This document shows positions 1,461 through 52,166 of a stretch of 52,166 bases of DNA, one piece after another; position 1 is the first letter of the stretch; each line of letters starts with the position of its first letter. The notes beneath the pieces are model-generated. The model did not search any database. It was not told the DNA's origin and saw nothing but the letters and a program-made list of their open reading frames with translations. The DNA is from an uncultured delta proteobacterium. Lineage in GTDB: Bacteria > Myxococcota > Myxococcia > Myxococcales > Myxococcaceae. The stretch covers positions 1 through 52,166 of the forward strand of contig CAVYSY010000049.1 in the NCBI GenBank assembly GCA_963771175.1, read 5' to 3'. A program made the position numbers and the translations under genes.

Positions 1461-1512
1461 GGTGTCAGACGACTCGTAGGGGGCGAGGTGTCGGAACGAG
1501 TCCTTTGACACC
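1461..1512 (+). repeat. Complete 52-bp A-spacer-B element (reference copy)
   Basis: GGTGTCAGACGACTCGTAGGGGGCGAGGTGTCGGAACGAGTCCTTTGACACC. Confidence 0.97.
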
Positions 1513-1827
1513 TTCTCGTTGGGCACGAATGCAGGGGCCAAGCTCATGCACACGGGGTGGCGCCACAAGCTGGCTCGGGGGCATGTCGTCCGGGCGACGA
1601 AGGACACGGCCCCGACCTGCCCGGGCTCGGCCGCCATGGGGGAGAGCACCGGGCGCCACTACGATGTGGTTAGGGTGCGCCGCAACGCCTGAGCGGCCTC
1701 ATGCGCGGATCGGCGGGACCGGAATTTCCGCCGATCCGGCCTGAATCCCCGCTCTTCCCTTCCTCGGGGTCCCGACGCATCCTCTGGTCCAATCGCCCGC
1801 CTCCCGCGGGTCTCCCGAGGACACGTC

Positions 1828-2559
1828 ATGACTCACGAACACCCTGCCCCCTCCCTCCACCACATCGTGCCGGGCTTTGGCGCCGACCGCGCCGCCCACT
1901 ACGATACCCAGGCATCCGTCAACCTCGCCGGCATCCAGGCGGCGTACGAGCTCGGCGTCAGCGCGCTGACCGCCCAGCTCGACGGCCAGGACACGGCGTC
2001 GCTGCTCTTCGTGGGACTGGGCACGGGGGCGGAGTTGATGCCCTACACCCGCTTCGACGTGCCGGGCTGGCGCTTCACGGGCGTGGAGCCCTCCGAGGCC
2101 ATGCTCGCCGTCGCCCGCAAGCGCCTGGAGGCCGAGGGAATGCTCTCGCGCACGCACCTGCACGTGGGCGAGCTGCATACCCTGCCTCCCGGACCTCCGT
2201 TCGACGGCGCGCAGATGATGGGGGTACTGCACCATGTGGAGGGCGAGGAGGCCCGCCTCGAGCTGCTGCAAGAGGTGACTCGGCGGCTCAAGCCCGGAGC
2301 GCCCCTCGTTCTGGGCTGCCGCGTCGGCAAGGACCCCGAGCTGACGAACGTGGAGCTGCGGCGGTGGCGGGCGTATGGAATCCCCCCGGACGAACTGGAG
2401 CGTCGGCGCCAGCTCTTCGCGGTGATGCGGCCCATCGAGTCCGATGCCGCCCTGTTCGCGATGTTCGCCCGGACCGGGCTGGTGGCGCCGCGTCAGCTCT
2501 TCGTCTCGCTGCAGTTCAAGGTCTTCCTCGCGCGCTTCGAGCCCGGAGCCGCGGGCTGA
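1828..2559 (+). CDS. Class I SAM-dependent methyltransferase
   Basis: Motif I LLFVGLGTGAE, FTGVEPSEAML, VLHHV. Confidence 0.85.
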   Translation: MTHEHPAPSLHHIVPGFGADRAAHYDTQASVNLAGIQAAYELGVSALTAQLDGQDTASLLFVGLGTGAELMPYTRFDVPGWRFTGVEPSEAMLAVARKRLEAEGMLSRTHLHVGELHTLPPGPPFDGAQMMGVLHHVEGEEARLELLQEVTRRLKPGAPLVLGCRVGKDPELTNVELRRWRAYGIPPDELERRRQLFAVMRPIESDAALFAMFARTGLVAPRQLFVSLQFKVFLARFEPGAAG

Positions 2560-2618
2560 GACCCGGTCCAGCGTGCATGAGCACGTGGACGAGGAAGCCC
2601 GCGCGAGCGAGAGCCGGA

Positions 2619-2635
2619 ACGAGTCCTTTGACACC
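2619..2635 (+). repeat. Lone arm B
   Basis: ACGAGTCCTTTGACACC followed by TTCCC. Confidence 0.9.
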
Positions 2636-2701
2636 TTCCCGCCTTCCCGGGGTTTGACGGTGGGCGGCGGCCGCAGCATCCTCGCGCGCGAGGTGCCGCC
2701 G

Positions 2702-3418
2702 ATGTTCGAGTACAGTCCGGCCTGGCCGCACGGAGCGATCGAGGCCGCGTTCCCCGAGGTGTTCGTCGTCGTCGGGACCAACAAGACGTCCCACGCTGGC
2801 GTCGACTTCCAGACCAGCCGGACGATGACCGTGGTCCGCGAGGCCGGCGCGCTGACGCTGCTGAACACGGTCCGCCTCGACGACGACGGGCTGCGCGCGC
2901 TCGAGGGCCTCGGCGAGGTCCGCCACGTTGTCCGCCTGGGGGCGTTCCACGGCCGCGACGACCCGTTCTACTGCGACCGCTACGGCGCGACGCTGTGGGC
3001 GCTGCCGGCGGCGACCCACGCCGACGGCCGCGCGACTGGGTGCCCGCTGGCCGAGGGCGGCCCGTTCCCGCTCGCGAACGGCGCGGCGTTCGTGTTCGCG
3101 TCGGCGCGCTTTCCCGAGGCCGCGGTCCTGCTCGCCCGCGAGGGCGGCATCTTGATCACCTGCGATGCGATCCAGAACTGGACGCACGTCGACCGCTTCT
3201 TCTCGCCGGAGTGCGGGGCGATGTTCGCCGCGCAGGGGCTGATCCGCCCCGCGAACCTCCCGTCGACGTGGATCGGCGCCTGCAAGCCGCGCGCGGACGA
3301 CTTCCGCCGCCTGCTCGCGCTGCCGTTCCTCCACCTGATCAGCGCCCACGGCGAGCCGCTGCGCGACGAGGCCCACGCCCGCGTCGCCGCGAGCGTCGCT
3401 ATGGCGTTCCCGGGTTGA
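2702..3418 (+). CDS. Hypothetical protein, metallo-beta-lactamase-like/DUF4336-like
   Basis: SRTMTVVRE, VRHVVRLGAFHGRD, LITCDAIQN, LISAHG; start taken at the ATG after arm B. Confidence 0.65.
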   Translation: MFEYSPAWPHGAIEAAFPEVFVVVGTNKTSHAGVDFQTSRTMTVVREAGALTLLNTVRLDDDGLRALEGLGEVRHVVRLGAFHGRDDPFYCDRYGATLWALPAATHADGRATGCPLAEGGPFPLANGAAFVFASARFPEAAVLLAREGGILITCDAIQNWTHVDRFFSPECGAMFAAQGLIRPANLPSTWIGACKPRADDFRRLLALPFLHLISAHGEPLRDEAHARVAASVAMAFPG

Positions 3419-3429
3419 GCCACAGCCAG

Positions 3430-3551
3430 GGTGTCCACAGCCAGGGTGTCAGACGACTCGTAGGGGGCCCGAGCCAGAGCCAGGGTATCCGGAACGAGTC
3501 CTTTGACACCTCCCGAGGACACCTCCCGAGGGGAACGAGTCCTTTGACACC
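3430..3551 (+). repeat. Element locus with stutter (1 arm A, 2 arm B)
   Basis: A at 3445-3461; B at 3494-3510 and 3535-3551. Confidence 0.92.
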
Positions 3552-3639
3552 TTCCCGAGTGCCCGGCGGAGGACATTGCGAAGCCGAACGAGCGCGGACA
3601 ATAATGCCTGCGGAAGCTCCAACTGATGGGGGCGAGCAT

Positions 3640-5460
3640 ATGCATGAGCGCCTCCGCCGTGGCGGTATCCCTGCTCAGGATGAGCGGAAGACGGTCGCTG
3701 CCCCCTCTCTTCCCTTGACTCCTTCCGCCGCTCCCTCGAAAGCGCCGCCAGAACAGGCGGCGTCGCCAGGGCGACACCCAGGCTTCGACTTCAGCCGCCT
3801 TCCCCTGTTCCCTCCCGACCACTCCCCCACGGCGTCGCCAGGAGTCTCCTCCGTCGGCGTGCCCCTGCCCGGCCCGGTGCGCTCCTACTTCGAGGAGCGC
3901 CTCGGCAGCGACTTCTCCCAGGTGCGCATTCACACCGGCCCTCCGGCACACGCGGCCGCTCGGGCCCTCCATGCCCATGCCTTCACCACGGGTTCCGACA
4001 TCCTCTTCGGTGAAGGCCGGTATGCCCCGGGCACGCGCTCCGGGCGCCAGCTGCTCGCCCATGAGCTCACCCATGTCGTGCAGCAGCGAGGGCGCGCGCC
4101 CCTGACCGGACCCGTCACCGTGAGTCGTCGCGGCGATCCGGCGGAGCAGGAGGCGGGCCGGGTTGCCCGGGTGGTGGCGCATGGAGGCGTCGCGCCGGAC
4201 ATCCGCGCCACGGCCTCGGCGGGCATCCACGCCCAGGATGCGCACGACGCGGGCATGGCGGACGCGGGTGTCTACGATGCCGGGGCGCCCCTTCCCGGAG
4301 GCATTCCCCCCACGGCGGAGGAGCTGGCCGAGGCGCGCCTGCGGGACACTCCCGTCGCCGAGCTGCGAGACGACGAGATAGGTCCCGCGCTGGAGCTGGC
4401 GCAGCGAACCAGCGCCACCCGGCGCTACACCGAGCTGCTCGTCCAGGTCCGGGACCGGGACACGGACTACAGCTTCGGCGTGGGCCTGCCGCTGGCCATT
4501 CCCCGAGGTGCCGGCGGGAATGCGATGGTCACGCCCCAGGTCGCGGTGGCCATCCTGGAGAACGTGCTGAGCGGCCGGCCTCCGTTCCGGCCGGAGCTGG
4601 GCGTGGGAGGCTGCTCGTGGTTCGTCACCGAGGGAAGCCCGCACACGGGCGTGGGCTCGGGCAACTCCATCCCCGTCCAGGCGGAGCTCATCAACACCGA
4701 GGGGGCCATCCGCTTCGAGCAGGCGGAGCTCGATCGGCTCTTCGCCGAGGAGGAAGCCCGTGCGCGCCCGGAGGTCGAGCAGCAGGTCCGCGAGCGCTTC
4801 CGGCTCCGCACGGGACGTGACGCGCCCGCGCAGCTCAGCAACACCCTGGCCGACCGCGTCGCCCGCCAGCTTCGTGGGCTGGCCGAGCGCCGCATGTGGG
4901 AGCGGGTCGCGGCACGGGTCCGCGCCTCCGCCTCCGGTGTGGGCGAGGTCATCCTCCCGGCGGGAGGGCGCTTCTCGACCAACCCGGGCCGCTTCACGGT
5001 CATCGCGCAGGCGGCGAAGATTCGCCTCCGGGGTGGGTTGATGCTGCTGTTGAATGCCCTCCGAGCCTCGGGACAGGCGACGGTCGTTCCGGCCCTGGAG
5101 CGGTCCGCCGCGGAGCTGGCGCGCAGCATGCGCCTGGCGGGCCGCGTCCGTCAGGTGTTCCGCGTTGGAGGGAAGATCCTCATCGTCGTCGCCGTCGCGG
5201 TCGACCTGTACGAAATCATCACCGCGGAGGACCACCTGGAAGCGACGCTCGTGAGCGTCTCGGGCTGGGTCGGGGCCTCCGCCGCGGCGGCGGCCTTCTC
5301 CGCGTTCTGGACTCCCGCGGACGTCGCGGGTCCCTGGGCCTGGGCCGGGCACGGCGTGGGAGTGCTCGTGAGCGGGGCCATCGGTTACTGGGTGGGCTCC
5401 TCCACCACCCGCTACATCTACCGCCTCGTGGTCAGCCACCGCGGGCAGGTCCGGGGTTGA
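3640..5460 (+). CDS. DUF4157 (eCIS core-like, HExxH) domain protein with unknown C-terminal region
   Basis: FSQVRIHT..ARALHAHAFTTGSDILFGEGRYAPGT..LLAHELTHVVQQ; hydrophobic Gly/Ala-rich C-terminus; start uncertain (3604 or 3640). Confidence 0.85.
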   Translation: MHERLRRGGIPAQDERKTVAAPSLPLTPSAAPSKAPPEQAASPGRHPGFDFSRLPLFPPDHSPTASPGVSSVGVPLPGPVRSYFEERLGSDFSQVRIHTGPPAHAAARALHAHAFTTGSDILFGEGRYAPGTRSGRQLLAHELTHVVQQRGRAPLTGPVTVSRRGDPAEQEAGRVARVVAHGGVAPDIRATASAGIHAQDAHDAGMADAGVYDAGAPLPGGIPPTAEELAEARLRDTPVAELRDDEIGPALELAQRTSATRRYTELLVQVRDRDTDYSFGVGLPLAIPRGAGGNAMVTPQVAVAILENVLSGRPPFRPELGVGGCSWFVTEGSPHTGVGSGNSIPVQAELINTEGAIRFEQAELDRLFAEEEARARPEVEQQVRERFRLRTGRDAPAQLSNTLADRVARQLRGLAERRMWERVAARVRASASGVGEVILPAGGRFSTNPGRFTVIAQAAKIRLRGGLMLLLNALRASGQATVVPALERSAAELARSMRLAGRVRQVFRVGGKILIVVAVAVDLYEIITAEDHLEATLVSVSGWVGASAAAAAFSAFWTPADVAGPWAWAGHGVGVLVSGAIGYWVGSSTTRYIYRLVVSHRGQVRG

Positions 5461-5464
5461 TGTG

Positions 5465-6013
5465 ATGAGCCGCACCCACGTGATGGCACGACTGATGACC
5501 CTGGCCGGTCCGCGGGGCCCACTGGGGACGGATGAAGTGCTCGACCGGCTCCGCGACGAGCTGCTGGAGGGCGAGCCGCTCACCGCGGCCTCCGCCATTC
5601 TCGATGCGGTGGAGACACGCCCCGAGCTGCCGGCGAATGTCTCACGCGAGGACTTCGAGGGCACTGCCGCCGACCTGCTGGCGGAGCTGGGGGAGAGGCC
5701 CGGAGTCGTGGACTACCTCTGCCAGCAGCTCGAACGTCCCGGACTCCGGGGCGTGCTCCTGGATGCACTGGCGCTGCTGGCAGACCCGGCGGCGGCGCCC
5801 GCGGTGGCCGCGCTCGCGAAGGCCCAGCTTCCGCAACCCGCCTTGGAGACGCGGGAGCTGGTCAAGCTGCTCTCCGCGCTGGGCTGTGTGGGAGGCCCGG
5901 AGTCACGGGAGGCACTCGACTCTCTTCGTGCGCGTGGGGGTTGGAGTCCCGAGGTCTCCCGGGAGCTGGAGATCGCCGACGAAGCTCTGGGCAGGGTGTC
6001 AGACGACTCGTAG
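5465..6013 (+). CDS. Helical (HEAT-like) hypothetical protein, possible partner or immunity protein
   Basis: Starts 4 nt after the DUF4157 stop; Leu/Ala-rich helices; stop codon lies inside arm A. Confidence 0.65.
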   Translation: MSRTHVMARLMTLAGPRGPLGTDEVLDRLRDELLEGEPLTAASAILDAVETRPELPANVSREDFEGTAADLLAELGERPGVVDYLCQQLERPGLRGVLLDALALLADPAAAPAVAALAKAQLPQPALETRELVKLLSALGCVGGPESREALDSLRARGGWSPEVSRELEIADEALGRVSDDS

Positions 6014-6046
6014 GGGGCGAGGTGTCGGAACGAGTCCTTTGACACC
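5995..6046 (+). repeat. Complete 52-bp element
   Basis: Identical to 1461-1512. Confidence 0.97.
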
Positions 6047-6072
6047 TCCCGGGCGGACTTACCTGAAAGGGA

Positions 6073-7198: not shown

Positions 7199-7236
7199 CC
7201 CTGACACCTTCCCTGGAGCGTGCCTCCCACGGGGAA

Positions 7237-7342
7237 GGTGTCAAAGGACTCGTTCCGACACCTCGCCCCCCTACGAGTCGTCCCCTACGAATCGTCTGAC
7301 ACCCTGAGCCGGAGCAGCCCGGAAGGGTGTCAGACGACTCGT
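7237..7342. repeat. Reverse-oriented element (7237-7303) back-to-back with a forward arm A (7326-7342)
   Basis: GGTGTCAAAGGACTCGT..ACGAATCGTCTGACACC, then GGTGTCAGACGACTCGT. Confidence 0.92.
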
Positions 7343-7455
7343 GTGGGTAGGCCCTCACCTGACACACCGAGCACCTCCTGGAAGTCGGGCGCGGTCCATG
7401 CGAACACTCGCAGCACGTGGCCTCCAGCAGGCGGAGAGGCCCGTGAGGAGCACGC

Positions 7456-8229
7456 ATGGACGAGAAGAAGAAGTCCGAGGTGAGCGGGGAGGGACCGGAG
7501 CGGGTGGGGCCGTACCTGATTCAGGAACAGGTGCAGCAGTCCCATGACAGCCAGGTGGAGCTCTACCTGGCCACGAACGAGACGAGCGGGGCCACGGCCC
7601 TGGTGCGGAAGCACACCGCCGAGGAGGGCGCGGCACCGGGGAAGAACTGGCGGGTGCGCCTCGGCTTCTGGGCCTCACGGGGCTACTCCGCCATGGATAT
7701 GGAGCACACCGACTGGGCCAGGGCCCAGGACCATCAGTCGGCGGAGTCGCTGCTGCTCACGTTGGAGAGTGTGCTCGAGGAAGTGCGGCACATGGCCCGC
7801 GCCTTGTCCGACACCGACAAGCCCCGCCTCCGGTGGCGCCTGGGGTTGGGCGTGGTGAGCGCCGCCACGGTGGGAACCCTGCTCTTCGCGCTGGTGCGTC
7901 TTACCTCGGTGTCCCAACCCCCGAGCGCCCCGCCAGCGCCCATGAGCCACGGGGTGCCCACGGCAGCTGAGACGTCGGACTTCCGCGCGTGGCTCGCGGA
8001 CACCACTCCCCAGGGGCAAACCGTGTTCGCCCGACCTCTCCCGAAAGAGCCCTTCAAAGGACAGAAGCGTCCCCCCTGCACGCGCTACACCGAAGTTGAG
8101 CTGGTGGGCGCCTGCTGGATGCCTCACGAGCTGAAGGCCCCGTGCCCGGAGGACCTCTTCGAGTACCAGGGCAAGTGCTACGCGCCCTCCTTCAGCGCGA
8201 AGCCGCCGCCCTCGTCGCTCGGGCAATGA
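7456..8229 (+). CDS. Myxobacterial membrane protein with Cys-rich C-terminus like that of myxobacterial Ser/Thr kinases (copy 1)
   Basis: PLPKEPFKGQKRPPC..ELVGACW..CPEDLFEYQGKCYAP; one TM helix; degenerate kinase-like start ERVGPYLIQEQV. Confidence 0.75.
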   Translation: MDEKKKSEVSGEGPERVGPYLIQEQVQQSHDSQVELYLATNETSGATALVRKHTAEEGAAPGKNWRVRLGFWASRGYSAMDMEHTDWARAQDHQSAESLLLTLESVLEEVRHMARALSDTDKPRLRWRLGLGVVSAATVGTLLFALVRLTSVSQPPSAPPAPMSHGVPTAAETSDFRAWLADTTPQGQTVFARPLPKEPFKGQKRPPCTRYTEVELVGACWMPHELKAPCPEDLFEYQGKCYAPSFSAKPPPSSLGQ

Positions 8230-8320
8230 GTGGTGCGGGCGCTCGCGGGCTTCACTTACAGACGTCCGTACGTGAGGCCACACTTCCCGTGGAAGGTGCA
8301 GGAAGGGTGTCTGCAGGAAG

Positions 8321-8372
8321 GGTGTCAGACGATTCGTAGGAGACGAGGTATCAGAACGAGTCCTTTGACACC
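8321..8372 (+). repeat. Complete element, variant allele
   Basis: GGTGTCAGACGATTCGTAGGAGACGAGGTATCAGAACGAGTCCTTTGACACC. Confidence 0.95.
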
Positions 8373-8400
8373 ATTTCCGGCCGATGTTGCCGCCCAGATA

Positions 8401-9206: not shown

Positions 9207-9349
9207 CGCGGCCCCCAGGTTGAGGAGACAACCCTAGCACCGCTCGTGATCGGTGGCGTAACGCCCCATCGCGCGACCCACGCCTGCGAGCTACGGGCTC
9301 CAAGCGCCCCATTCTGTTGCGCACCAACAACATGGGCCATGGCAGCCGG

Positions 9350-9402
9350 GGTGTCAGGCGATTCGTAGGGGGGCGAGGTGTCGGAACGAGTCCTTTGACA
9401 CC
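9350..9402 (+). repeat. Complete element, variant
   Basis: GGTGTCAGGCGATTCGT..ACGAGTCCTTTGACACC followed by a TGACACCTTCCCT stutter. Confidence 0.93.
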
Positions 9403-9421
9403 TTCCCTGACACCTTCCCTG

Positions 9422-9715
9422 GGGCTCTACACGCCCGAGATGCTGGCCGCGATCCTGCGAGACTGGTTGCTCCAATTCCCCGACAGGGTGCTCTTCGGGA
9501 CCGATGCCGCGTCTTTCGGGCCGGACGTCGGCTGGGAGCTGGCCGCCTGGATCGGAACGACCCAGGCGCGGACCGCGCTGGCGATCGCCCTCGGCAACAT
9601 GATGCGCAGCGGAGAGGTGAGCCGCACCCGCGCCGAGGAGCTCGCGACGATGGTGATGCGCACGAATTCCGGGGTGCTCTACGGCCTGTCCCTTGGCACC
9701 GAGGGGGGGCTGTAG
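9422..9715 (+). pseudogene. C-terminal fragment of an amidohydrolase-family protein
   Basis: FPDRVLFGTDA..AEELATMVMRTNSGVLYGL is typical of an amidohydrolase end; N-terminal part absent, reading begins right after arm B. Confidence 0.65.
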
Positions 9716-9774: not shown

Positions 9775-11793
9775 TCAGCCCGCGGACTTGCGGCGGCGCG
9801 CGCCCAGCATCGCCAGGGCCGCCAGGAGCACCCCACCGAGGGCCTCACTGGAAGAGGACGCTCCGCAGGCGCAGCCGCGCCGGGCGTACTGCCGGCTCAC
9901 CGAGACGGTGAACATGCAGCGCGAGGTGTTGCCGGCTGCATCGGTGGCGGTGACGACGACCGGAGTGTTGCCCACCACGAAGTCGCTGCCAGACGGAGGG
10001 TTGTAGGTCAACGCCGGCGGGGAGATGGAGTCGGTGGCCGTCGCCGGCGGGTATTCGACGGTGGCGCCCAAATGGTTCGTCCTCCAGGACTCCTGGTCCA
10101 GCGGGCAGGTGATCGACGGCGGCTGGGTGTCCCGCACCTTCACGGTGAAGGTGCACTGCGAGCTGTTTCCGGACTCATCGGTCGCCGTGACGGTGACCGG
10201 GGTCGGGCCGAGCGGGAAGGTGCCGCCCGTGGAGTGGCTGTAGCTCAGGGTCACCGGCCCGGGCTTGTTGTCACTCGCCGTGGCGGCCGGATAGGTCACG
10301 CTCACACCAGCCGGGGCCATCGCCTCGGAGGTCCTTTCAGAGGGGCAGGCGAGCTCCGGCGGAGTGCAGTCGTTCAGCGACCAGGGCTCGGCGCCGGCGG
10401 TGCTGTCTCCGGCGATGAAGAAGACGCGCGGGCCCACGGGGGTGAGCAGGGAGGGCGCCAGGGAGCCGGTGCCCGGGACGGCGTCGTGGAGCAGCATCGT
10501 CCCTTCCTGGGTGCCATCGCTCGACCAGAGCTCCCGGCCGTGCTCCGCCGTCTCGGCGCTGAACAGCACCGTGCCGTCCACCACCGTCAGCCAGTAGGGG
10601 GCCGAGCCATCGCTCCCGGGACGGATGTCCTCGACGAGCACCGTGCCGGTGACCGTCCCATCACTGCGCCACAGCTCGAAGCCGCTCGCGTCATCCCACG
10701 CGGAGAAGAGGAGCTGCCCGTCCAGGTCCGTCAGGAAGCGGGCGTTGGCCGAGGGCTTGACGAGGAGCGTGCCCTTGTCGGTGCCGTCACTGCGCCACAG
10801 GGAGCCGTCCGCTCCCGCGAGGAAGTAGATCAGCCCTCCCACGGGCACCATCTTCCCTGGGCCCGCCGCGTAGTCCGAGGCGCTCAGGCCCAGCGGGGTG
10901 ACTCGGACCGTCCCCGGACCCGTCCCGTCGCTCTTCCAGAGGTCCCACCGCTTCGCATAGTCGGACCCGGCGAAGAAGTAGAGCCGATCTCCCAGGGTCA
11001 ACAGGCCCTGGATGAGCTGCTCGCCGGGATCGCTCTCGATGACGCGGATGACCGCGACGCGCTCGGTGCCCGCCTGGGTGCCATCGCTCTTCCAGAGCTC
11101 GGTCTCGTGGGGCCCGCCGTCGGCGGCGAAGTAGAGCACGTCCTTCATCACGGCCAGCGAGCCGAGCCCCGCGCCCTGCGAGCCGGGGAGGAGATCCGCG
11201 ACCAGCGCGGTGCCGGACTCGGAGCCATCGCTCTTCCACAGCTCGGGGCCGTGGACGCCGTCGTCGGCGATGAAGAAGAGCGTCTGGCCCAGCGCCAGCA
11301 GCGAGGACGCCGCCGAGCCCTCGAGGCCAGGCCGGATGTCCCGGACGAGCAAGGTGCCTTCGGCCGTGCCATCCGTCTTCCACAGCTCGCGGCCGTGGGC
11401 GCCGTCATCGGCGATGAAGAAGAGTGTGTTGCCGATGGTGGTGAGGGACCGAGGATCCGAATCCCTGGCGCCTGGGAAGATGTCCTTCACCAGGGCCGTA
11501 TCACCCTCCCTGCCACGGCTCCGCCAGAGCTCGAGGCCGGTCGTTCCATCCCTGGCGGTGAAGAAGACTGTCTTGCCGCTGACGGCCGGCGGTTGGACGT
11601 CATAGTCCGGGACCGAGCTGGCGGTGCCCGGGGCGATGTTCTTGATGAGGGTGATGGGCTGACAAGTGGCGGACGCCGCCTGGAGGGCCTGGGGAGAGGT
11701 CGTGTCCAGTGCGTCCGCTGTGTGCGAGGCCAGGGCTCCAGCCAGCACACAGACGGAGAGCAGCGAAGACACTCCGGTTCGATACCGACGCAT
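9775..11793 (-). CDS. ELWxxDGT-repeat surface protein with two HYR domains and MYXO-CTERM-like tail
   Basis: Repeated ELWKSDGT; DxxPPxITCP..VTATDxxGNxSxCxFTV twice; GCACG + hydrophobic stretch + RRRK. Confidence 0.9.
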   Translation of the reverse strand: MRRYRTGVSSLLSVCVLAGALASHTADALDTTSPQALQAASATCQPITLIKNIAPGTASSVPDYDVQPPAVSGKTVFFTARDGTTGLELWRSRGREGDTALVKDIFPGARDSDPRSLTTIGNTLFFIADDGAHGRELWKTDGTAEGTLLVRDIRPGLEGSAASSLLALGQTLFFIADDGVHGPELWKSDGSESGTALVADLLPGSQGAGLGSLAVMKDVLYFAADGGPHETELWKSDGTQAGTERVAVIRVIESDPGEQLIQGLLTLGDRLYFFAGSDYAKRWDLWKSDGTGPGTVRVTPLGLSASDYAAGPGKMVPVGGLIYFLAGADGSLWRSDGTDKGTLLVKPSANARFLTDLDGQLLFSAWDDASGFELWRSDGTVTGTVLVEDIRPGSDGSAPYWLTVVDGTVLFSAETAEHGRELWSSDGTQEGTMLLHDAVPGTGSLAPSLLTPVGPRVFFIAGDSTAGAEPWSLNDCTPPELACPSERTSEAMAPAGVSVTYPAATASDNKPGPVTLSYSHSTGGTFPLGPTPVTVTATDESGNSSQCTFTVKVRDTQPPSITCPLDQESWRTNHLGATVEYPPATATDSISPPALTYNPPSGSDFVVGNTPVVVTATDAAGNTSRCMFTVSVSRQYARRGCACGASSSSEALGGVLLAALAMLGARRRKSAG

Positions 11794-42075: not shown

Positions 42076-42304
42076 GGTCGCCCCTCTACCCCAGGACGGG
42101 CTCGGGATTGGGTGTGAATGGTGTAAAATTTGCGTAGAACTGGATTATAGGGCGCCATGGCGTGCGGTGGTCAACGTTCACCTCGCTGGCGAAGACGCGC
42201 GCGGACCGCGAGAGCCGGACGGTGTCGTTCTCGTGGCGCGCCCCGTGTAACGAACCGCGTGGCTTGGAGACTGGCCCGCAGAACCTGCCAAGGAGCGGTC
42301 CCAC

Positions 42305-43391: not shown

Positions 43392-43606
43392 AGCGGAATG
43401 AGGGCGCTGTGCTGGCCGAGCAACGCGCGCAGCTCCACGGGTGTGTGAGTCGCCTGGCGGAGCTCCAGCGGCACGTCGTGAGGATGCGCATGCTCGAGGA
43501 AATGTCCGGAGCCGACGCTGCCTCAACGCTCGAGCTGCAGCCGGGGCACGTTGCCGTGCTCCTCCACCGCGCGAAGAGGGACCTCCTTCGGTGCATGGCG
43601 GAGTGA
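43392..43606 (+). pseudogene. ECF sigma factor region-4 fragment
   Basis: CVSRLAELQRHVVRMRMLEEMSGADAASTLEL..VAVLLHRAKRDLLRC; region 2 absent. Confidence 0.6.
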
Positions 43607-43672
43607 GACCGAAGGGGATGGCGGCGAGTATTGGCATACGTGACGGCCAAGGCCGGCGTGTGTCCCACGGAG

Positions 43673-43698
43673 GGTGTCGGAACGAGTTCTTTGACACC
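43673..43698 (+). repeat. Spacer end plus arm B variant
   Basis: GGTGTCGGAACGAGTTCTTTGACACC. Confidence 0.88.
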
Positions 43699-43778
43699 TT
43701 TCCGGTTCGCGTAACCGTCCGGCGGAGCCTGCGTATCTACTCCGCGCAACGCGCTGGGCACTCAACGGGAGATGAACG

Positions 43779-44789
43779 ATGACGCGTGCATCCGTAGCTA
43801 CCACTCGCAGCTTGCCGAGCTTCTCCGCGGCTCCCTCATTTGAGCAAGCCCTGGCTGACCATGGCGCCGCGCCGCTTGTCCGTGGGCGCGTCCGAACACT
43901 TCAGGTCAATGTCGGCAAGCTCTGCAACATGGCGTGCCATCACTGCCATGTCGAGGCCGGGCCCAAGCGAACCGAGAGCATGGGGCGCGACGTCGCCGAA
44001 CGTCTCATCGAGCTGCTCTCCAGAAATCCCGACGTCGAGGTCGTCGACTTCACGGGTGGCGCCCCCGAGCTCAACCCGCACTTCCGGTGGCTCGTCGAGG
44101 AGGCTCGACGGCTTGGACGGAGAGTCATCGATTGATGCAACTTGACGGTGCTCTTCGAGCCAGGCCAGGCGGAGCTTCCTGACTTCTTGGCCAGGCACGA
44201 CGTCGAGATTGTCGCCAGCCTTCCCTGCTACAGTCCCGAGAACGTCGAAAAGCAACGGGGGCGCGGCGCGTTCGACAAGAGCATCCAGGCCCTGCTCCTG
44301 CTGAACAAGCTCGGCTACGGGCGGGTGGGCTCGCGCCTCAAATTGAGTCTCGTTTACAACCCCGTCGGGCCGTCGCTGCCCCCCGCCCAGGGAAAACTCG
44401 AGGCGAAGTACAAGGAAGAGCTGTCGCGGCTCTTCGGCATCGAGTTTCACGACCTGCTCACCATCACGAACATGCCGATCAAGAGATTCGCGCACGCCCT
44501 CGAACGCGCGAACGCGCTCGAGTCCTACATGGGCTTGCTCGCGAATCACTTCAACGTGAGCACGGTACCGGAGCTGATGTGCCGGTCCCTCGTGAGCGTG
44601 AGCTGGGATGGTCAGCTCTACGACTGCGACTTCAACCAGATGATGGACCTGCCTCCTGGCGCGGGAGCGCGTTCGATCTGGGACATCGACTCGTTCGCGG
44701 AGCTCGAGCGCGCCCGAATCGCGACCGACGGCCACTGCTTCGGCTGCACCGCGGGGGCGGGCTCGAGCTGCTCGGGGGCGTTGCGTTGA
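43779..44789 (+). CDS. arsS: Arsenosugar-biosynthesis radical SAM protein, with in-frame TGA at 44133
   Basis: LQVNVGKLCNMACHHCHV, FTGGAPELNP, YDCDFNQM, HCFGCTAGAGSSCSG. Confidence 0.82.
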
Positions 44790-44810
44790 CCCACATGACC
44801 ACGGCCACTG

Positions 44811-45078
44811 TCATCCTCGCGGCGAGCACTCAGCGCAGCTGCGCGGTGGAGCGTCCCACTGGGCGAGCCGCACGCGAACCCGGGCCTCGCGCGGGGTGTA
44901 CTTCATGGCGTTGTCGAGGAGGTTGGCCAGCACCTGCTCAATCCGGTCGCGGTCCGCGCCCACCCAGGCGACGCCCTCGGTGAGCTCCACGTCCAGGTGG
45001 CGCTGGGGGTGCTGGTGGCGGAAGTCGTCGGCCACGTCGGCCACCAGGGCGCGCAGGTCCACGGGCCGCGGGCGGATT
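44811..45078 (-). pseudogene. Internal fragment of a histidine kinase HATPase domain
   Basis: VDLRALVADV..DRDRIEQVLANLLDNAMKYT; lacks H-box and G-boxes; abuts the repeat. Confidence 0.75.
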
Positions 45079-45088
45079 TGAAGCCGGA

Positions 45089-45105
45089 ACGAGTTCTTTG
45101 ACACC
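45089..45105 (+). repeat. Lone arm B variant
   Basis: ACGAGTTCTTTGACACC, the same variant as 43682. Confidence 0.88.
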
Positions 45106-45138
45106 TTTCCTGCTTGGGGGAGCACTGGTGTCATGCGG

Positions 45139-45941
45139 TCAGTTTCGGCCCAACGCCCTGTCCCAGTCAGCCAACTGCAGGGTCACCGTATACTTGTAGG
45201 CGCTGGAGATTTTCTCGAAGTCTTTCGGGGGAAGCGCGGAGAGGCGCTCGCGCAGGAAGCCCGGGTCGCTGAGCTCCTCGCGGTGTTTGAAGCCGGTGTC
45301 CACCTCGACCAGGACAGGTATCACCCGGAGCACGGCCTCCATGCACTCCTCTCGAGTAGCGCGAGACATGCGCTCCACCGTCAGAGACAGGTGCTCGCGC
45401 ACCGAAGGGGGGCCCCCGGGGCACCATGCCTCCAGCGTCATACCGTAGATGTCCTCTACCAACTCCTCCAGCGTGTACTCCCTCGAACCAGAACGCGTAG
45501 CGCGGGCCCTGGAGCACCTCCCAGAAGCGCAGCAGCGCGGCGAGCCGCCTGGCCATGCGCTCCGCGCTCCGCGGCGGGGGGGGAGACACGGCATGGTAGA
45601 GCGCGCCCCAAGGGGCGCTCAGGCAGAAGGTCTCGAAGACCTCCTCCATTCGCTGGCGCTTTTCTTTTGGGACGCCGTCATTCAAGCCGATGAAGACGTC
45701 GGCGAACAGGTACACCCGCCAGCGGGGGTGGGGGATGATGTTGGAGTCGGCCCCCGAGTCCACGATCAGCGCCTCGCCGGGCGGCACCTGGAGCATCCGC
45801 CGAGGCTGGGTAAAGGCACCCGTCTCGAGGTACTCCCGGGCCCACTCCTGCCCCTTGGCTCTCACCTTGTCGGAGGATGGCGCCGGTGAGGCCGTGGAAC
45901 ATCGCTGGAAATTCGAGCCCCGGGGACTGTGGCACGGTCAT
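45139..45941 (-). CDS. Myxobacterial hypothetical protein, possible immunity protein (frameshifted)
   Basis: ORFs 45678-45941, 45167-45865 and 45139-45594 join into one protein. Confidence 0.6.
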
Positions 45942-45974
45942 GGCCCTGGCCCTACCACAGTGGTTACGTGCGTC

Positions 45975-47284
45975 TCAATGGCAGTCCACGGGCAGGTAGA
46001 CCTGGCCTTGGAAGCCGCTGGGCCATTTGCCCCCTTCATAGGCAGCCCGGAGCGCCTGCTCGGCCACCTCACCGAGCTTTTCCATTTCCCCCTGAGGCAC
46101 CTGCTCTTCTTTCTGGGCCGCGCGTTCCTTCCAGGAGGCGTTGGGCTGCTTGCGCCGGTAGCTCCAGCGGTAGAGCGTCACGCCGGGCTCTGGCGTGCGC
46201 AAGGACAACTGCCAGAGCGCTCCCCCGTTCTCGAACTCGAGAAAGAGCGAGCCGTCGAAGCCAGTGCCTCCCGAGAGTTGTTTGTGGGGCTCAACGGCCG
46301 CATTGAGCGCCGCCAGGTAGTGCCCCGCCTGCTCCCTCCCCTGCCTGCGCGCCTCCTCGGTGTCCGGCTTGATCTCGAAGAGCACGAGCGCGCGGGTGTC
46401 GGTGATGTCCGGGCGCAACGCCAGGTAGTGCCCCGCCTGCTCCCTCCCCTGCCTGCGCGCCTCCTCGGTGTCCGCTGAAGCATCCCCTCATTCAGCAAGC
46501 TGGCGAGGAGGGGGCGGTAGGCTGTTTAGTTCGAGCGGTAGGGTCATGGACGTTACTGGAGAAGTGGGTATCTTCCAGCTATCAACGAGCAGCAGGTCCA
46601 TGAATTCCTCTCCAGCCTCTTCGCGGAGGATGTCCACTCCAAGCGGGTGCTGTCGCTCTCGCTGGCGACGCTGGGGGCCGCAGGTGAGAGTCTTGGCATG
46701 GAGCGCCACCTCAAGGCCAACACCTCCAAGAAACGCACCTACTCCCTCTTCCGTCAGGGATGTATGTACTACCAGGCCCTGCCGATGATGCGCGAAGCCG
46801 CGTTGCGGCCGCTCATCGAGCGCTTCGCCCAACTCGTCCGTGAGCAGCTCTGTCTTCCGCGAAGCTTTCGGTCTCATCTAAAATGAGGGGATGGCTCAGC
46901 GGTGTCCGGCTTGATCTCGAAGAGCACGAGCGCGCGGGGTGCTCGGTGTTCCGGGCGCAGGAGTCTGACGAACTTGGGGAGACGCTCGGGGTCTCCCAAC
47001 TCCCCGTCCTTCACGATGGTGAAGAGATTGACGGTGTCGAGGAAGACGCGGTTGGAGGGATTCTGCGCGCGGTACTGCCTGCCAATGGCTTCATGTTGCG
47101 GCCCGGCCAAGAAAGGCGCCCCAGGGCTCCGTGGAGTCTGACTTGCGGCCCTGGAGCCTGGAGGAGGGGGGCTCCGCCTGGGCACTGAGGGTCGCCACGA
47201 GCACCAGGAGAAAACCCGCCAGCCCCAGGGTGCTCCTCCCCAAGGCGCGCCTCGTCCTGGCCGCACGTTCTTTCATGGACAACA
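45975..47284 (-). pseudogene. Secreted PD-(D/E)XK-like protein interrupted by an IS remnant and a 108-bp duplication
   Basis: Signal LAGFLLVLVATLSAQA; HEAIG..LRPDITD..LFEIKP; split at 46475-46899. Confidence 0.6.
46475..46899 (+). mobile_element. Internally deleted IS4-family element (425 bp)
   Basis: TIRs CTGAAGCATCCCCTCATT and AATGAGGGGATGGCTCAG; 9-bp TSD CGGTGTCCG at 46466 and 46900; transposase C-terminus LGAAGESLGMERHLKANTSKKRTYSLFRQG. Confidence 0.85.
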
Positions 47285-47643
47285 TGCTCCTCCCGGTGCA
47301 GTTCAAGGTCGGGAGGCAACCATCTGACGGCTGCGCACCTAGGCCCGCGCAGGACCGTGAACCCCCACCTGGACGGCAGCCAGCGTCGAGGTTCAACAAA
47401 AAGTACTCCCCGGCAGAACTCGCCAGTTCGAGGCCGCGCAGTCTCGGCATGCTCGCCCCCCCCGCGATCCACGTCCATGCGGCCCCAGCGCCCTGTGTGG
47501 ACGATCTCCACGAAGCCCAGCGCCCCTCACGGTCGTATCAACGTACCCCGCCCCGCTCACCTGGACGCTCGCCCTGTAGCCTCAGCGCTCACCATAATGC
47601 CCGCTTCCTTCAGTGAAGCAGCGGGACGCTGTAGGCTTCGCTT

Positions 47644-48902
47644 ATGACCACTCTACGCTTCCCTCGTTTTGAACGAACTCTCGGAGTTTCGCTGAATGAA
47701 CTCAAATTTGAGCATCTCGTTCAGCTGGCTGCTCGATTTACCTCCGACCCTGTGTTGGAGGACTTTGATCTGGAGTTCAAAGAGCGAGTCTACGACGAGA
47801 ATGAAAAGAATCGTCGGGAGCTTCCCGCAGACATAGCTGCGATGGCTAATAGCCAAGGCGGCATCATACTCCTCGGCATCAAGGCGGAGAATGGCGCCGC
47901 AAAAGAAGCCGTTGAGTTGCCGCTCACCGAAGCAGAGGAACTCAGAATGACAAATATGATCCTGTCGGCCATCTTTCCACGGCCGAGGTTTGAGTTCCTC
48001 CGCGTTGTCAAAGCAACAGACCCTACAAAGGGCTGCTTTGCCATACTAGTCCCCAAGAGTCCTGACGCACCACATGCCGTGAGGCTTGATGAAAATTATC
48101 GCTACTATCGACGAGACAGCGCAGCAAAACGCATCATGTGGGAGTCCGAGATCGCTGACGCATATCGCAGCCGCTTTCATGAGTCCGACAATCAAGTCCA
48201 GCGACTCCAGAAAGTAGCAAGCGATGGGGCCAGCCAACTTAGCCGGACCGGAATGGGATGGCTTTCTATGTCACTTGTCCCCAACAACCCCGGCGGGATG
48301 AATTTGACCAATCAGAGCCTACAGCGGCTGGAGAGTTGGATCAGAACCTACACTCAAGACAGCGTGACCCGCATTCCCGCCTTTTACGGTCGAACGGCAC
48401 GCCAGCGTATCGGAGCCCGCCGGGTAAGTTCAGCGCGGGGCGCAACAATACTGATCATCTTAATGAGTACTCCTACGCTGAACTTCACACGGACGGCAGT
48501 GGCTTTTATTCGTACTGGCTTCCTCTAAATCCCGACGGCAAAAACATCGAACCTCAAGCCCTCAGAGTCCAAGACTCAAGTGTCACAGAACGAGCCCTCT
48601 GCGGATTGCGCCTTCTTGCGGATCATGCGATCAGCAATGCTGGCTGCCATGGGGACGCACTTGTATCTGCCAGCATTGTTCTGCCCAAAGACATGAGTAA
48701 TATCATTCCTATTGAATTCAGCTCGAATGACTTTTCGCCCTCGCAACCGCTTGACCCCATTCCTTGCCCTGATGAGTCAAGTGCAACCGTCAACCTGGAT
48801 GAAATAGTCGGCGCTTGGCGTGGAACGCTGCTGGCCACTAGACTAGTGCTTGCTGACTTCATGCAGGCGTGCGGAATTCCCCGATGCCGCCAGATTTCTT
48901 GA
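47644..48902 (+). CDS. AlbA_2/Schlafen-domain protein (frameshift near 48430)
   Basis: EDFDLEFKE..DIAAMANSQGGIILLGI..PKSPDAPHAV..YYRRD; markedly lower GC. Confidence 0.8.
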
Positions 48903-48949
48903 GTGTGGGGAACTCAATCCTCAAACTTGGCCAAACGAAGGACTACAGG

Positions 48950-49910
48950 AATGGACTCAGCGCGCGAGGCTAACTTTCATCAACCGCCGAGACTAAGAAC
49001 AAAGGCGTGCATCGCACTTCTGCTCTTTCTCTCAGCCTGCGCTACGACACCGCCCACCCCAAGAGAGCCAGCGGCCCGGGACCCGAGGCTCGCCAACCTC
49101 CAGCGAGCGGCGAAGCTGCCCTGGACGGACGGGGGGCAGTGTGCCGTCCGCGAAGCTTCTGAGCCCTGGCCCGTGCTGGCGGAGCGGTGCTTTTATGCCC
49201 TCGACCATGACCGGGTTCGGTTTCGGGACATCACGGGCAGATGCGCCGTCGCCTCCGCAGGTGCGGCAGTGGGCGTCGGACTCTGTGTCTTGGCGGCACC
49301 GGAGATCATCGTGGGAGCAGTGATCGTCGCGGGCGTGGTGGTGGTGGGATTCGCCATCAAAGAGGCCCTGGATGCGTATGCGCTGGATATGGGCCACCCC
49401 GAGGTAAGGCCCGTGCCAGAAACGCGGCCCGTGCCTGAAACAGCGCCCGCCCCGCAGAAACCCTCGCCGAAAAAAAGGCCCAAGCCGGAGCCCAAAGGGC
49501 CGGATTTCCCTCCCGTGGAGCCACCCGAACTCTCGGAGCGAGATCGTCACAGGTGCGAGCCCGTCCCAGTGCCGATCACCGGGCGAGAATAAGCTGCATA
49601 ACAAGTGCGCCGATCAGTTTCCGCCCAACCGTTATCCCCGGAATGGATGTGCTCGTGGGCGGTGTGAGCTTCGATGCACTGCAAGTCGGCGCGCGTGTGC
49701 TGTGGGAGATCAAGACCCATCGATTTGATACGTACCCTGACTTTATTCGACGAGAAATGGAGATTGATAGATCAAATGGAAAAATTGCAGCAGGAGCGTG
49801 CGGCGGCATGTGGATATGCTTAGGTCGTTGGGGTGAGCACCCAAGCGCACAAAGCCGCGCTGCTCGACGAGATCAACCCTCAATATCGTTGTCAGGGGTG
49901 CAAACGATGA
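48950..49910 (+). CDS. DUF6310-like lipoprotein toxin with REase-like C-terminus (multiple frameshifts, start uncertain)
   Basis: ACIALLLFLSAC; LQRAAKLPWTDGG; CEPVPVP; FDALQVGARVLWEIKT. Confidence 0.7.
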
Positions 49911-50664
49911 CCAAGCGTAGAGACCCTCATCTTCATCGTCTACGCGCCTGCTCTCGTGGGCAACGACCGCCGCGCGCTTAGCGTCGTCATGGAATGGAAA
50001 GGGCGCTCCCCGGCTTGCGCCTGGAGTGGAGGATTTCCGAGAGGGGAGCTGATCCCGCGTTGCCGCAGCGCGACGCGTGGCTCGTAGAAAGCATTGAGGA
50101 CGGGGGATTCCCGCTCCTGTGCAATGGCGACGAGAGCTACCCCGTGACGGTTTCGGGAATGGGAAGATCGGGACTCTTCAGCCCAGGCGGTCAGGACCAG
50201 TTTGAAGTGCATGCAAAACTGCCACTGGACGAGCCCGTGATCGCGGCAGCGGCGGATGTGCTTGAAGGCATGGCGGAGGGGGCTCGCGCGTTTTGGGGGC
50301 GTGCGACGCCGGACGGCGTGGCGGCGGAGATGGCGTAGCAGGTGCGCCATTCGCTGGACGGAGCCGCATGCTCCGCCCCGGGGGCTGCCCGCGCTCAAGC
50401 TCTCCGACGCACATCCGCTCGCCAGAGATTCCGCATCACCTCGGGTGGCTGAACTACTGGTCCGCCGCTGCCGCAGAAGCCATCGGCTTTCCGGACCCGG
50501 CCCGCGACGCGGAGCTGCTGTCACGCTCACGGCGTACCGCGACGGGCGGGTGGGTCGTGCAGCTCACCGATGCGCCGCTCGACCTGGACAACCCGGCCCA
50601 CCTGGACGCGCTCAAACGGGCCTACGAGCGCTTCCCGGAGATTGGCGGGCGCTCCGCCCCTTGA
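49907..50664 (+). CDS. DUF5953-like immunity protein (frameshifted)
   Basis: IVYAPALVGND..MERALPGLRLEW..LGWLNYWSAAAA..LTDAPLDLDNPAHLDALKRAYERFPEIGGR. Confidence 0.75.
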
Positions 50665-50692
50665 GGCTCGGCACGGCTCGCGCTGGCCGTGC

Positions 50693-51170
50693 TCAGGGCC
50701 CCTTCGCTTTGCCCTCGGGGAAGGTGACGTTCCCAAGGGTGACGGTGCGCGGCCCGGTTGCCTCCCACAGCTTGAGGGTACAGGGGCAGCCGAGCTGCGC
50801 GCGCTCCCCCTCGATGCCCACCACGACGGCACCGGCACCATTCGCGGGGATGGGTGCCTGTTGCCACCGGGCAAGCTCCACCTCTTCCCCCGCCTTGTCC
50901 ACCAGCGCCGCCCCCGCGAGCGTCCAGGGCTCGGCACCGGGGTTCTTGAGGCTCAGTCGCGCAGCCACGCTCACCGGGCGGGTCTTGTCGCTGAGCGTGT
51001 AGCTGGAGCTCGTGGTCGCTTCCAACCCGAGCGCGTTTCCCGGCTGCTCCCTCACCGACCCGAAAAGCGGCTTGCGACGCGAGGGTCCCGGCCCGCTCCA
51101 GCCACGCGGCCCCCATGAGCCCGCCCGGCTCCTGACGCTCGGCCAGAAGCCGCGCTTTGTCCTCCTGGCA
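50693..51170 (-). pseudogene. C-terminal fragment of a DUF2381-like protein
   Basis: LKNPGAEPWTLAGAALV..GCPCTLKLWEA..VTLGNVTFP; N-terminus missing at the repeat. Confidence 0.65.
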
Positions 51171-51178
51171 CCGGAAAT

Positions 51179-51230
51179 GGTGTCAAAGGACTCGTTCTGA
51201 TACCTCGTCTCCTACGAATCGTCTGACACC
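51179..51230 (-). repeat. Complete element, same variant allele as 8321-8372, inverted
   Basis: Reverse complement equals 8321-8372. Confidence 0.96.
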
Positions 51231-51259
51231 CTTCCTGGGACACCTTCCCCGAGCACCAC

Positions 51260-52035
51260 TCATTGCCCGAGCGACGAGGGCGGCGGCTTCGCGCTGAAGG
51301 AGGGCGCGTAGCACTCCCCCGGTGTTCGAAGAGGTCCTCCGGGCACGGGGCCTTGAGCTTGTGAGGCATCCAGCAGGCGCCCACCAAGCCCAACTTCGGT
51401 GTAGCGCGTGCAGGGGGGACGCTTCTGTCCTTTGAAGGGCTCTTTCGGGAGAGGTCGGGCGAACACGGTTTGCCCCTGGGGAGTGGTGTCCGCGAGCCAC
51501 GCGCGGAAGTCCGACGTCTCAGCTGCCGTGGGCACCCCGTGGCTCATGGGCGCTGGCGGGGGCGCTCGGGGGTTGGGACACCGAGGGAAGACGCACCAGC
51601 GCGAAAGAGCAGGGTTCCCACCGTGGCGGCGCTCACCACGCCCAACCCCAGGCGCCACCGGAGGCGGGGCTTGTCGGTGTCGGACAAGGCGCGGGCCATG
51701 TGCCGCACTTCCTCGAGCACATTCTCCAATGTGAGCAGCAGCGACTCCGCCGACTGATGGTCCTGGCCCTGGCCCAGTTCGGTGTGCTCCATATCCATGG
51801 CGGAGTAGCCCCGTGAGGCCCAGAAGCCGAGGCGCACCCGCCAGTTCTTCCCCGGTGCCGCGGCCTCCTCGGCGGTGTGCTTCCGCACCAGGGCCGTGGC
51901 CCCGCTCGTCTCGTTCGTGGCCAGGTAGAGCTCCACCTGGCTGTCATGGGACTGCTGCACCTGTTCCTGAATCAGGTACGGCCCCACCCGCTCCGGGCCC
52001 CCTCCCCGCTCACCTCGGACTTCTTCTTCGTCCAT
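51260..52035 (-). CDS. Copy 2 of the 7456-8229 gene (frameshifted)
   Basis: Near-identical sequence on the opposite strand. Confidence 0.8.
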
Positions 52036-52150
52036 GCGTGCTCCTCACGGGCCTCTCTCCGCCTGCTGGAGGCCACGTGCTGCGGGTGTTCGCATGGACC
52101 GCGCCCGACCTCCAGGAGGTGCTCGGTGTGTCAGGTGAGGGCCTACCCAC

Positions 52151-52166
52151 ACGAGTCGTCTGACAC
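52151..52166 (-). repeat. Arm A, inverted, at the window edge
   Basis: ACGAGTCGTCTGACAC. Confidence 0.9.

Follow-up and report, generated by a model that had tools for sequence, protein, structure and literature searches.

What has built the 52,166-bp contig analysed here, along which copies of one small inverted-repeat element separate unrelated segments of DNA? The contig (the window) is the whole of C49 of genome G000, an uncultured myxobacterium assembled into 9.83 Mb on 58 contigs and 82% complete. It also carries a gene for a transposase of the HUH (Y1) type, and among named records the closest transposases belong to Archangium and Cystobacter. An earlier note on this DNA had proposed that the HUH enzyme captures or shuffles segments into an integron-like array. 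We found that the small elements mark synteny breakpoints between unrelated fragments, joined at the element termini, and that the segments are arbitrary fragments in both orientations, not gene cassettes.

The element was introduced in the earlier note as arm A, an 18-nt spacer and arm B, 52 bp in all, present at about 25 loci. This layout (arm A at 1461-1477 and arm B at 1496-1512 in the first copy) recurs along the window; semi-conserved bases extend a further 7-8 nt outside the GGTGTC of each arm before conservation ceases, so the element is ~68 bp long and not 52 bp. Position -7 is a C in 53/67 A arms and 100/119 B arms. With at most one mismatch allowed, C49 holds 56 of the 128 arms and 21 of the 65 loci of G000, and with a looser pattern it holds 21 of 106 loci, on 0.5% of the genome (P ~1e-26). 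The window count rises to ~24 loci, in keeping with the original estimate, when degenerate copies near 20388 and 22347 and an arm truncated by the contig end are included. The claimed co-orientation is also borne out, with 18 of the 21 loci on the plus strand and three on the minus strand, and 11 of 12 complete elements on plus; mapped genome-wide, as had been suggested, the motif is clustered and polarised. Nineteen inter-locus segments of the window span 421-7795 bp, and in a hand list of 32 genes between 1.5 and 36.6 kb, 15 lie on plus and 17 on minus, confirming that cargo occupies both strands. Predicted hairpin stability is strong in the variant found in a complete relative, G001 (z -4.1, -5.2), and modest in that of the window (z -1.3 to -2.3). 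No Rfam covariance model matched the element at the gathering threshold. Arm B was present in 17/17 same-genus genomes, 1/7 other genomes of the family and 0/16 genomes of other families.

The element is tied to the HUH gene, as had been supposed, through its arms. The transposase unit of the window (36621-37742, plus strand) consists of an inward-facing left arm at 36629-36645, the HUH/Y1 gene at 36775-37706 and a right arm that overlaps the stop codon; repeated right ends and a lone arm A follow (37743-37856, plus). The earlier note had placed the start at 36775 correctly and had called the gene near-intact, yet a one-base frameshift lies near 37276-37281. Two intact 310-aa copies are found on C44 of G000, one of them at 35772-36704, and since the window copy is broken, activity would come in trans. 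Across the 28 transposase copies compared, the typical layout is one inward-facing arm ~100-150 nt before the ATG and an opposite arm that runs over the stop codon, with unrelated flanks outside the arms. Because the same inward-facing arms bound these 28 copies, the small element corresponds to both inverted ends of a ~1.1-kb transposase unit, joined head to head.

The enzyme belongs to the TnpA-Y1 HUH superfamily, judged by its HUH motif, catalytic tyrosine and modelled core fold: none of H63, H65 and Y122 varies among 10 aligned sequences, the tyrosine motif reads Y-x-L-A-H-G (Y122-VLAHG), and a structure model (pLDDT 78) has TnpA-REP 4er8 as its best match, the top nine Foldseek matches all being TnpA-REP/IS200 transposases. 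Its score against the Y1_Tnp profile (21.3 bits) falls slightly below the cut-off of 23, and those against the NCBIfam RAYT profile NF047646 (50.9 and 52.7 bits) fall below the cut-off of 80; a Pfam scan of the transposase gave no helix-turn-helix (HTH) match. Called RAYT-like in the earlier note, this is a multi-copy Y1 gene flanked by terminal inverted repeats (TIRs) and not a single-copy domesticated RAYT. The gene occurs in 14/15 same-genus and 37/151 family genomes, often in multiple copies, a genome typically holding several near-complete copies and fragments. The wider family comprises 1314 clusters at E<=1e-30. Related TIRs surround relatives of ~50% identity (L372, L373, L374, L376, L377), some with the terminal stutters described below; among acidobacterial relatives (~40% identity), no such arm clusters were seen in seven loci.

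Many arms are accompanied by partial copies of themselves. A further GGTGTC occurs within 60 nt on the outer side of 268 of 601 arms, as against 2% of random points. The outer partial copies share 5-9 outer bases in 203 of the 268 cases, and they reach inward 6 nt, the minimum of the search, at 150 arms and up to 44 nt at others. Since the outer bases are common and the inner reach is variable, the partial copies begin at the terminus and finish at a variable inner point.

The same termini are where shared DNA stops. We compared outer arm flanks with element-free homologues (>=88% identity, >=120 bp). Among 543 flanks, 93 had a homologue that stops before the arm, 38 of these at 5-9 nt outside it, and only four had one that runs through the arm, whereas at 1700 control GGTGTC hexamers near arms 215 homologues run through and 60 stop, six of them at 5-9 nt; the controls lie mostly inside genes, which exaggerates the contrast and leaves the position of the peak unaffected. 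A first-pass count had given 22/51. The last shared base is C at 30/38 terminal junctions versus 15/33 distant stops. On the inner side there is no fixed site, junctions being scattered from 0 to 40 nt and further. The junctions fall at arbitrary points of the joined DNA, often in mid-gene (45090, 2651, C6:154987), and the point at which one and the same donor DNA is joined varies from copy to copy, which is at odds with the integron-like cassettes of the earlier note. No clean empty site was found among 196 relative loci tested against G000, 24 of which have the two flanks apart; nine seemingly adjacent cases among the 196 were rejected as lone 16-mer look-alikes without an insertion. Six of 113 complete elements could be tested at both flanks: five are split, and one is adjacent but retains an arm remnant. 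The pattern that had been named as refuting the proposal, an even spread of randomly oriented elements between contiguous flanks, is thus not what we observe.

Each array carries its own version of the element. In a comparison of 84 complete elements (three counted on both strands, and L279 repeating the array of L280), the median variant distance was 1 within an array (185 pairs) versus 7 between arrays of one genome (811 pairs; within-genome permutation P 0.0005), and 173 of the 185 within-array pairs are co-oriented. A second array stands on the chromosome-length contig of G001, where 23 arm loci extend over 83 kb and include 17 complete elements, 16 of them co-oriented; 12/14 consecutive elements have an identical spacer. 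This array, which is independent of that in the window, lies in a ~103-kb island; in 4/5 relatives only 43-138 bp separate the flanks of that island. Its cargo consists mainly of ordinary accessory genes, together with toxin-immunity genes. Neighbouring G001 clusters differ in orientation, and two dispersed copies of the G001 array variant occur elsewhere, one adjoining an intact transposase. Cargo of the G001 array (L001:17327-17989; L002:4549-8448) has copies with 96-98% identity elsewhere in G000, G004, G006 and G015, at other loci; the flanking core DNA is less similar (84-89%), which points to recent transfer between species. The G004 copy begins exactly at the G001 terminus junction and finishes at an arm B. 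The same architecture recurs on a 140-kb metagenome contig.

The window itself appears to be the interior of an island. In 12/14 relative loci, the region of C28 that ends at 137560 adjoins the kinase-methyltransferase locus that begins at 39984 of the window, with a gap of 42-79 bp in three relatives and up to 7.5 kb in others, and none of the 14 has an arm. In G000 an arm lies ~60 bp past C28:137560, and at least 46 kb intervene before the kinase-methyltransferase locus. Core DNA restarts at C44:197777 in 6/14 relatives, ~5-6 kb to the right of 45090 having been lost or left unassembled; the contig order is probably C28-C49-C44. In three complete relatives (L344, L346, L347), core locus 39984-45087 lies no more than ~7-55 kb from one end of the record and is perhaps near the replication origin. 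At the end of C28, G000:C28:143956-144041 (an element and its right flank) is identical over 86 bp to C42:4294-4379, an internal site with a different left neighbour: an assembly fork or a population variant.

Content that varies between strains, with breakpoints at the arms, had been named as support for the proposal and was seen at element ends in two settings. A contig of run X20, from a close strain (12 differing letters in 850), joins 18449 to 20388, omitting two elements and the segment between them exactly from one element end to another, and shares 10 terminal bases at the joint, whose short side is 119 letters; X20 joints with a short side under 30 letters (such as 24340 to 24824) were left uncounted, and we excluded from the evidence the X20 coverage gaps at 27560-30215 and 20920-22911 and depth differences in run X1, which may be related to the source sample. 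In genus g37, one donor is joined to an arm in both G092 and G147, at two points separated by ~140 nt; the donor sequence occurs in G110 and G131 without an arm there, and block order differs in G147.

On balance we lean towards the view that the element is a non-autonomous form of the TIR-flanked Y1 (HUH) unit of Archangium-type myxobacteria, that it serves as a mobile linker, and that arrays grow by capture and rearrangement with duplication of the element. Transposase would be supplied in trans by intact copies, would nick a terminus on single-stranded DNA and would remain bound to the 5' end of the element, to which a free 3'-OH, mostly ending in C, would then be joined. A 3'-OH from the locally extended strand would tandemly duplicate a few to 40 terminal bases and give the partial repeats; one from further along, or from another molecule, would give a deletion or a duplication. 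Each end would be joined separately to new DNA, and where two ends of sister copies each took one end of a fragment, the product would be flank-element-fragment-element-flank. Repeated rounds might leave a polarised array of captured 0.4-12 kb fragments with the element duplicated each time, much like a CRISPR repeat. A stronger version, which we offer tentatively, is that these are gene-acquisition arrays of a new kind. Kilobase pieces of DNA, whether incoming or chromosomal, would be captured by the HUH transposase at a 68-bp hairpin linker that is duplicated with each capture; the outcome would be polarised, strain-specific archives of 50-100 kb that follow a CRISPR-like rule of growth for whole genes, with no integrase.

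Could the element instead be a bystander, a miniature inverted-repeat element (MITE) that hops locally and in one orientation within a pre-existing mosaic island, its copies deleting adjacent DNA and bringing nothing in? Array-specific variants, polarity and terminal junctions would all follow from such passive decoration, and both the nested junctions in one donor and the loss of ~5-6 kb of core DNA to the right of 45090 resemble adjacent deletions; sites are also variable without arms in relatives, and element-free seams exist. Many clean insertions would be expected, however, and there are none either among the 196 loci or in the six two-flank cases. Moreover, array-internal duplicates begin at termini, and the single fragment at 2651-3420 (plus strand), 95% identical to element-free DNA of G001, has element termini adjoining both its ends where its source has none. 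We regard passive decoration as unlikely. Somewhat less likely still are translocatable units of the IS26 kind, in which a distant element circles out with one segment and docks, by targeting or by RecA, at a resident element that is not duplicated. Docking of this kind is disfavoured by the length of the element, as 68 bp is short for efficient RecA recombination. Such units yield the same co-oriented architecture (PMC4196232, in the part available to us), and they would fit the X20 joint, as an excision between two left termini, the two dispersed copies of the G001 variant with one beside an intact transposase, and the permuted blocks in G147. They would also tend to mix variants within an array, against the 12/14 shared spacers of G001, and donor sites are mostly without elements. 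In the capture reading and in that of translocatable units alike, the enzyme would actively build the array.

The many segments of 1-3 genes, and several junctions right behind stop codons (the stops at 3418, 20250, 30481, 26951 and 30909 do lie within ~25 nt of an element locus, as had been pointed out), would suit a domesticated integron-like platform with defined gene cassettes. We consider this very improbable: cuts fall in mid-gene (45090, 2651, C6:154987) and at variable points of one donor, genes are split 15 to 17 between the strands, and there is no fixed site, no intact adjacent recombinase and no conservation of arrays. Fixed cassettes are largely refuted by the variable junctions. 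The absence of an integrase noted earlier holds for tyrosine recombinases on C49, C28 and C44, none of which has a PF00589 match in this gapped assembly, and a tblastn search with the serine recombinase of G001 found no match in G000. That the array is an artefact of a fragmented genome scaffolded across a repeat is hardly credible. G000 is incomplete, with many frameshifts and with contigs ending in elements, and no contig of the compared read sets spans the array; the architecture nevertheless recurs in the chromosome-length contig of G001 and on the 140-kb metagenome contig, and the junction positions and array-specific variants are unlike misassembly.

Several observations weigh against growth of arrays by capture. 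In the middle of the G001 island stands a large serine recombinase gene, and 19 kb of the island are free of arms; the site of the window is variable in any case, nine relatives carrying arm-free inserts of 0.5-7.5 kb there. Element-free seams occur near 11900, 14050, 21500, 39900, 42200 and 44850, so the island must have been fed by other routes as well. Long arrays were seen in two genomes. Eight others (G016, G017, G092, G110, G122, G006, G008, G015) show only dispersed or paired complete elements, most relatives carry dispersed elements, and arrays are not conserved in position. The two-flank test was possible for six elements only, and a test of gene-pair adjacency is underpowered, with 1/49 arm pairs testable (split) and controls adjacent in 18/23 (Fisher P 0.25). 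Activity of the enzyme is deduced from sequence, and transposase copies within one genome are 81-87% identical (one pair 95%), a level that does not demonstrate recent hopping of the full unit. Taken together, the HUH-driven capture or shuffling proposed in the earlier note survives in its link between element and enzyme, its clustering and its breakpoints, and fails in its cassettes.

Viewed from left to right, the window opens with GC-rich tandem repeats of ~80 bp and then a second, shorter repeat (1-480), which is probably why the contig begins here. A lower-GC open reading frame (ORF), apparently frameshifted, follows at 665-1331 and ends in an R-x4-H motif that we take to be HEPN-like; its last 94 aa have no Pfam or PADLOC match. 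The first complete element (1453-1520, with left terminus, arms, spacer and right terminus) precedes a methyltransferase-gene segment with homologues in 15 relatives and differing flanks (1702-2565), a lone arm B with a terminal partial repeat (2616-2650), the fragment at 2651-3420, a locus of arms A, B and B with terminal partial repeats (3421-3558), an eCIS-core-domain gene and downstream ORF that may be toxin-immunity-like (3859-5986) and a complete element (5987-6053), all on plus. An element with an internally duplicated spacer (7229-7311) lies on minus; next, on plus, are a lone arm A, a multi-copy ORF (7456-8229) and a complete element (8321-8372), together 7318-8380. Block 7327-8380 is duplicated and inverted at 51171-52166, the copies diverging 8 nt outside arm B. 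A complete element with a terminal partial repeat (9342-9422, plus) is followed by the longest segment (9775-17159, minus), which holds an ELWxxDGT/HYR protein, a Ser/Thr kinase and a ferric reductase-ApbE-PepSY cluster and is itself a mosaic whose seams lack the element.

On the plus strand there follow a locus of six arm-A copies, as terminus-anchored partial repeats, and arm B (17190-17572); a complete element (18450-18542) and a two-gene segment with no assigned function (18543-20250), both skipped in X20; and a locus of arms A, A and B (20247-20361). Region 20362-23360 is marked by internal duplications (20358-21434 = 22316-23360 and 21521-22346 = 25588-26415), of which 20358-21434 starts at the right terminus of the preceding element; the degenerate elements near 20388 and 22347 lie here, and a very AT-rich 120-bp linker at 21400-21520, where reads appear cut, joins two duplicated blocks. 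Further plus-strand loci are a lone arm B (23715-23738), a complete element with a partial repeat between DUF3455 and FAD-oxidase genes (24811-24891), a complete element (26432-26499), a lone arm B with a partial repeat (26912-26948) and a locus of three arm-A and seven arm-B copies (30482-30900). An operon for vWA, PP2C and kinase-like proteins (30909-34593, minus) is presumably TerY-P-triad-like, Pfam giving the domains only; its homology with relatives stops 5 nt before an arm A (34599), where nine relatives run into another shared gene. A locus of five arm-A and three arm-B copies (34591-34871, plus) lies between it and the transposase unit.

To the right of that unit, a core-chromosome piece with histidine kinase and methyltransferase genes (39984-42180, minus), found in 17/17 relatives, anchors the island. 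Within the same core locus are genes for an ArsM-like methyltransferase and an ArsS-like radical SAM protein with an arm B (43673-43706) between them (42405-44789, plus) and a fragment of the next core kinase gene (44854-45113), severed within the gene at the inner side of an arm B (45089-45105). Multi-copy toxin-immunity-like modules (DUF6310, DUF5953, DUF2381) and a Schlafen/AlbA_2 gene occupy 45146-51055; a complete element that is part of the inverted copy (51171-51245) and the truncated arm A (52151-52166), both on minus, close the window. The modules (7456-8229, 45146-46422, 49005-50697) are multi-copy in G000, and our uncounted impression is that copies elsewhere are often near arms or transposase fragments (C9, C21, C28, C30, C42, C44, C52, C54). 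The cargo had been called rich in defence genes. This is upheld only in part, by toxin-immunity-like Pfam domains, for which we assume the label SitA-like, Pfam supplying the domains only; PADLOC gave no more than generic kinase hits for 2/28 proteins. A short ORF (46647-46886) without a Pfam match resembles a fragment of another transposase. One-base frameshifts are numerous (34268, 37276 and others), and since X20 contigs have an extra base at 34268, some may be assembly errors or strain-specific. No tRNA genes were found in the window or the G001 island, and a viral scan gave 60 single 16-mer matches, none clustered, which were judged to be chance and excluded from all counts.

Surveys, in the parts available to us, call the function of long TIR-flanked Y1 transposases unknown. 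Here the ends of such a unit leave a precise footprint (cutting 7-8 nt beyond the arm, a join that follows C, partial repeats at the termini and array-specific linkers) that coincides with the build-up of large accessory islands. If fragments are captured with duplication of the linker, this would be an integrase-free route of gene acquisition and shuffling in myxobacteria, would account in part for their strain-level diversity of toxin-immunity and metabolic genes, and would offer a small enzyme that joins single strands and demands very little of its target. As the family is wide (1314 clusters), the mechanism may reach beyond myxobacteria.

How does this system compare with those already known? 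Integrons (IntI, attI, attC) and CRISPR adaptation both give polarised arrays in which a short repeat separates acquired DNA, and the window resembles them in having one short hairpin-forming repeat, with CRISPR sharing the array-specific repeat. It differs from integrons in lacking a PF00589 match, fixed cassettes and a fixed gene orientation, and from CRISPR in having inserts of 0.4-12 kb instead of ~30-bp spacers. IS91, ISCR and Helitron elements are Y2 rolling-circle elements with dissimilar ori and ter ends; their one-ended capture likewise involves a HUH enzyme, a fixed end joined to new DNA and carried gene fragments, whereas here two similar inverted ends each act as a fixed joining end. 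IS200/IS605 elements have dissimilar ends, a short TnpA and contiguous flanks, as opposed to similar inverted ends, 310 aa and split flanks. IS26 is an 820-bp DDE element. Its arrays also place directly oriented elements at the ends of and between unrelated segments with arbitrary boundaries (PMC4196232, as far as the available part goes), but IS26 needs its own transposase gene, whereas the linker here is a gene-less 68-bp element that belongs to a HUH enzyme.

With the E. coli REPtron (TnpA-REP with REP/BIME) and RAYT/REPIN systems, as far as the available parts of PMC3333891 and bioRxiv 119735 describe them, the system shares the HUH/Y1 fold and a doublet of inverted arms. It would also share with the REPtron tandem amplification through nick, extension and rejoining and a low cut specificity at C; the TnpA-REP authors measured cleavage at C|T, put forward a nick-extend-rejoin model for BIME amplification and proposed sequestration of flanking genes (PMC3333891). 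It departs from these systems in that the gene is multi-copy and bounded as a unit, RAYTs being single-copy and vertically inherited (bioRxiv 119735), in that its scores lie under the NF047646 cut-off, and in that its loci are few (tens to ~100) and clustered in islands with no clean insertion in the few testable cases, where REPINs are dispersed doublets between contiguous genes. In picocyanobacteria, multi-copy TnpA-REP genes are reported to be interspersed with variable genes, the cause being unproven (bioRxiv 2020.03.09.984088, part available to us).

The closest likeness is to TIRtrons (TIRYT; Di Nocera et al. 2013, PMC3733652), in which Y1 genes lie between TIRs and the TIRs are also present as dimers and in clusters; by its anatomy the system is a TIRtron, not a REP/RAYT system or an integron. 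As in the available text on TIRtrons, a long Y1 transposase is flanked by TIRs that may overlap the gene end, and the TIR family occurs as singles, dimers and clusters; the presence in one genome of several moderately diverged copies recalls subclass 2.3 of Quentin et al. (2018, bioRxiv 279083), and by the descriptions given there the transposase would sit near TnpA-Y1 subclasses 2.1/2.3. Its motifs differ from those given for TIRtrons and subclass 2.1, with Y-x-L-A-H-G in place of Y---NP, a TIR core of GGTGTCA in place of the GGGGWSAS of some TIRs, and no HTH tail. The main text searched contains no myxobacterial name. Polarised TIR-dimer arrays with captured fragments are nowhere described in the literature covered, outside which lie ISfinder, most subscription papers and figure 9 and additional files 4-5 (the TIRYT lists) of PMC3733652. 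In the text available, TIRtrons are described as static gene-plus-TIR structures, with no polarised 50-100 kb arrays, terminal breakpoints or captured fragments. TIRtron anatomy is already known, and what the present arrays add to it are TIR ends at synteny breakpoints, array-specific variants and the probable capture of fragments.

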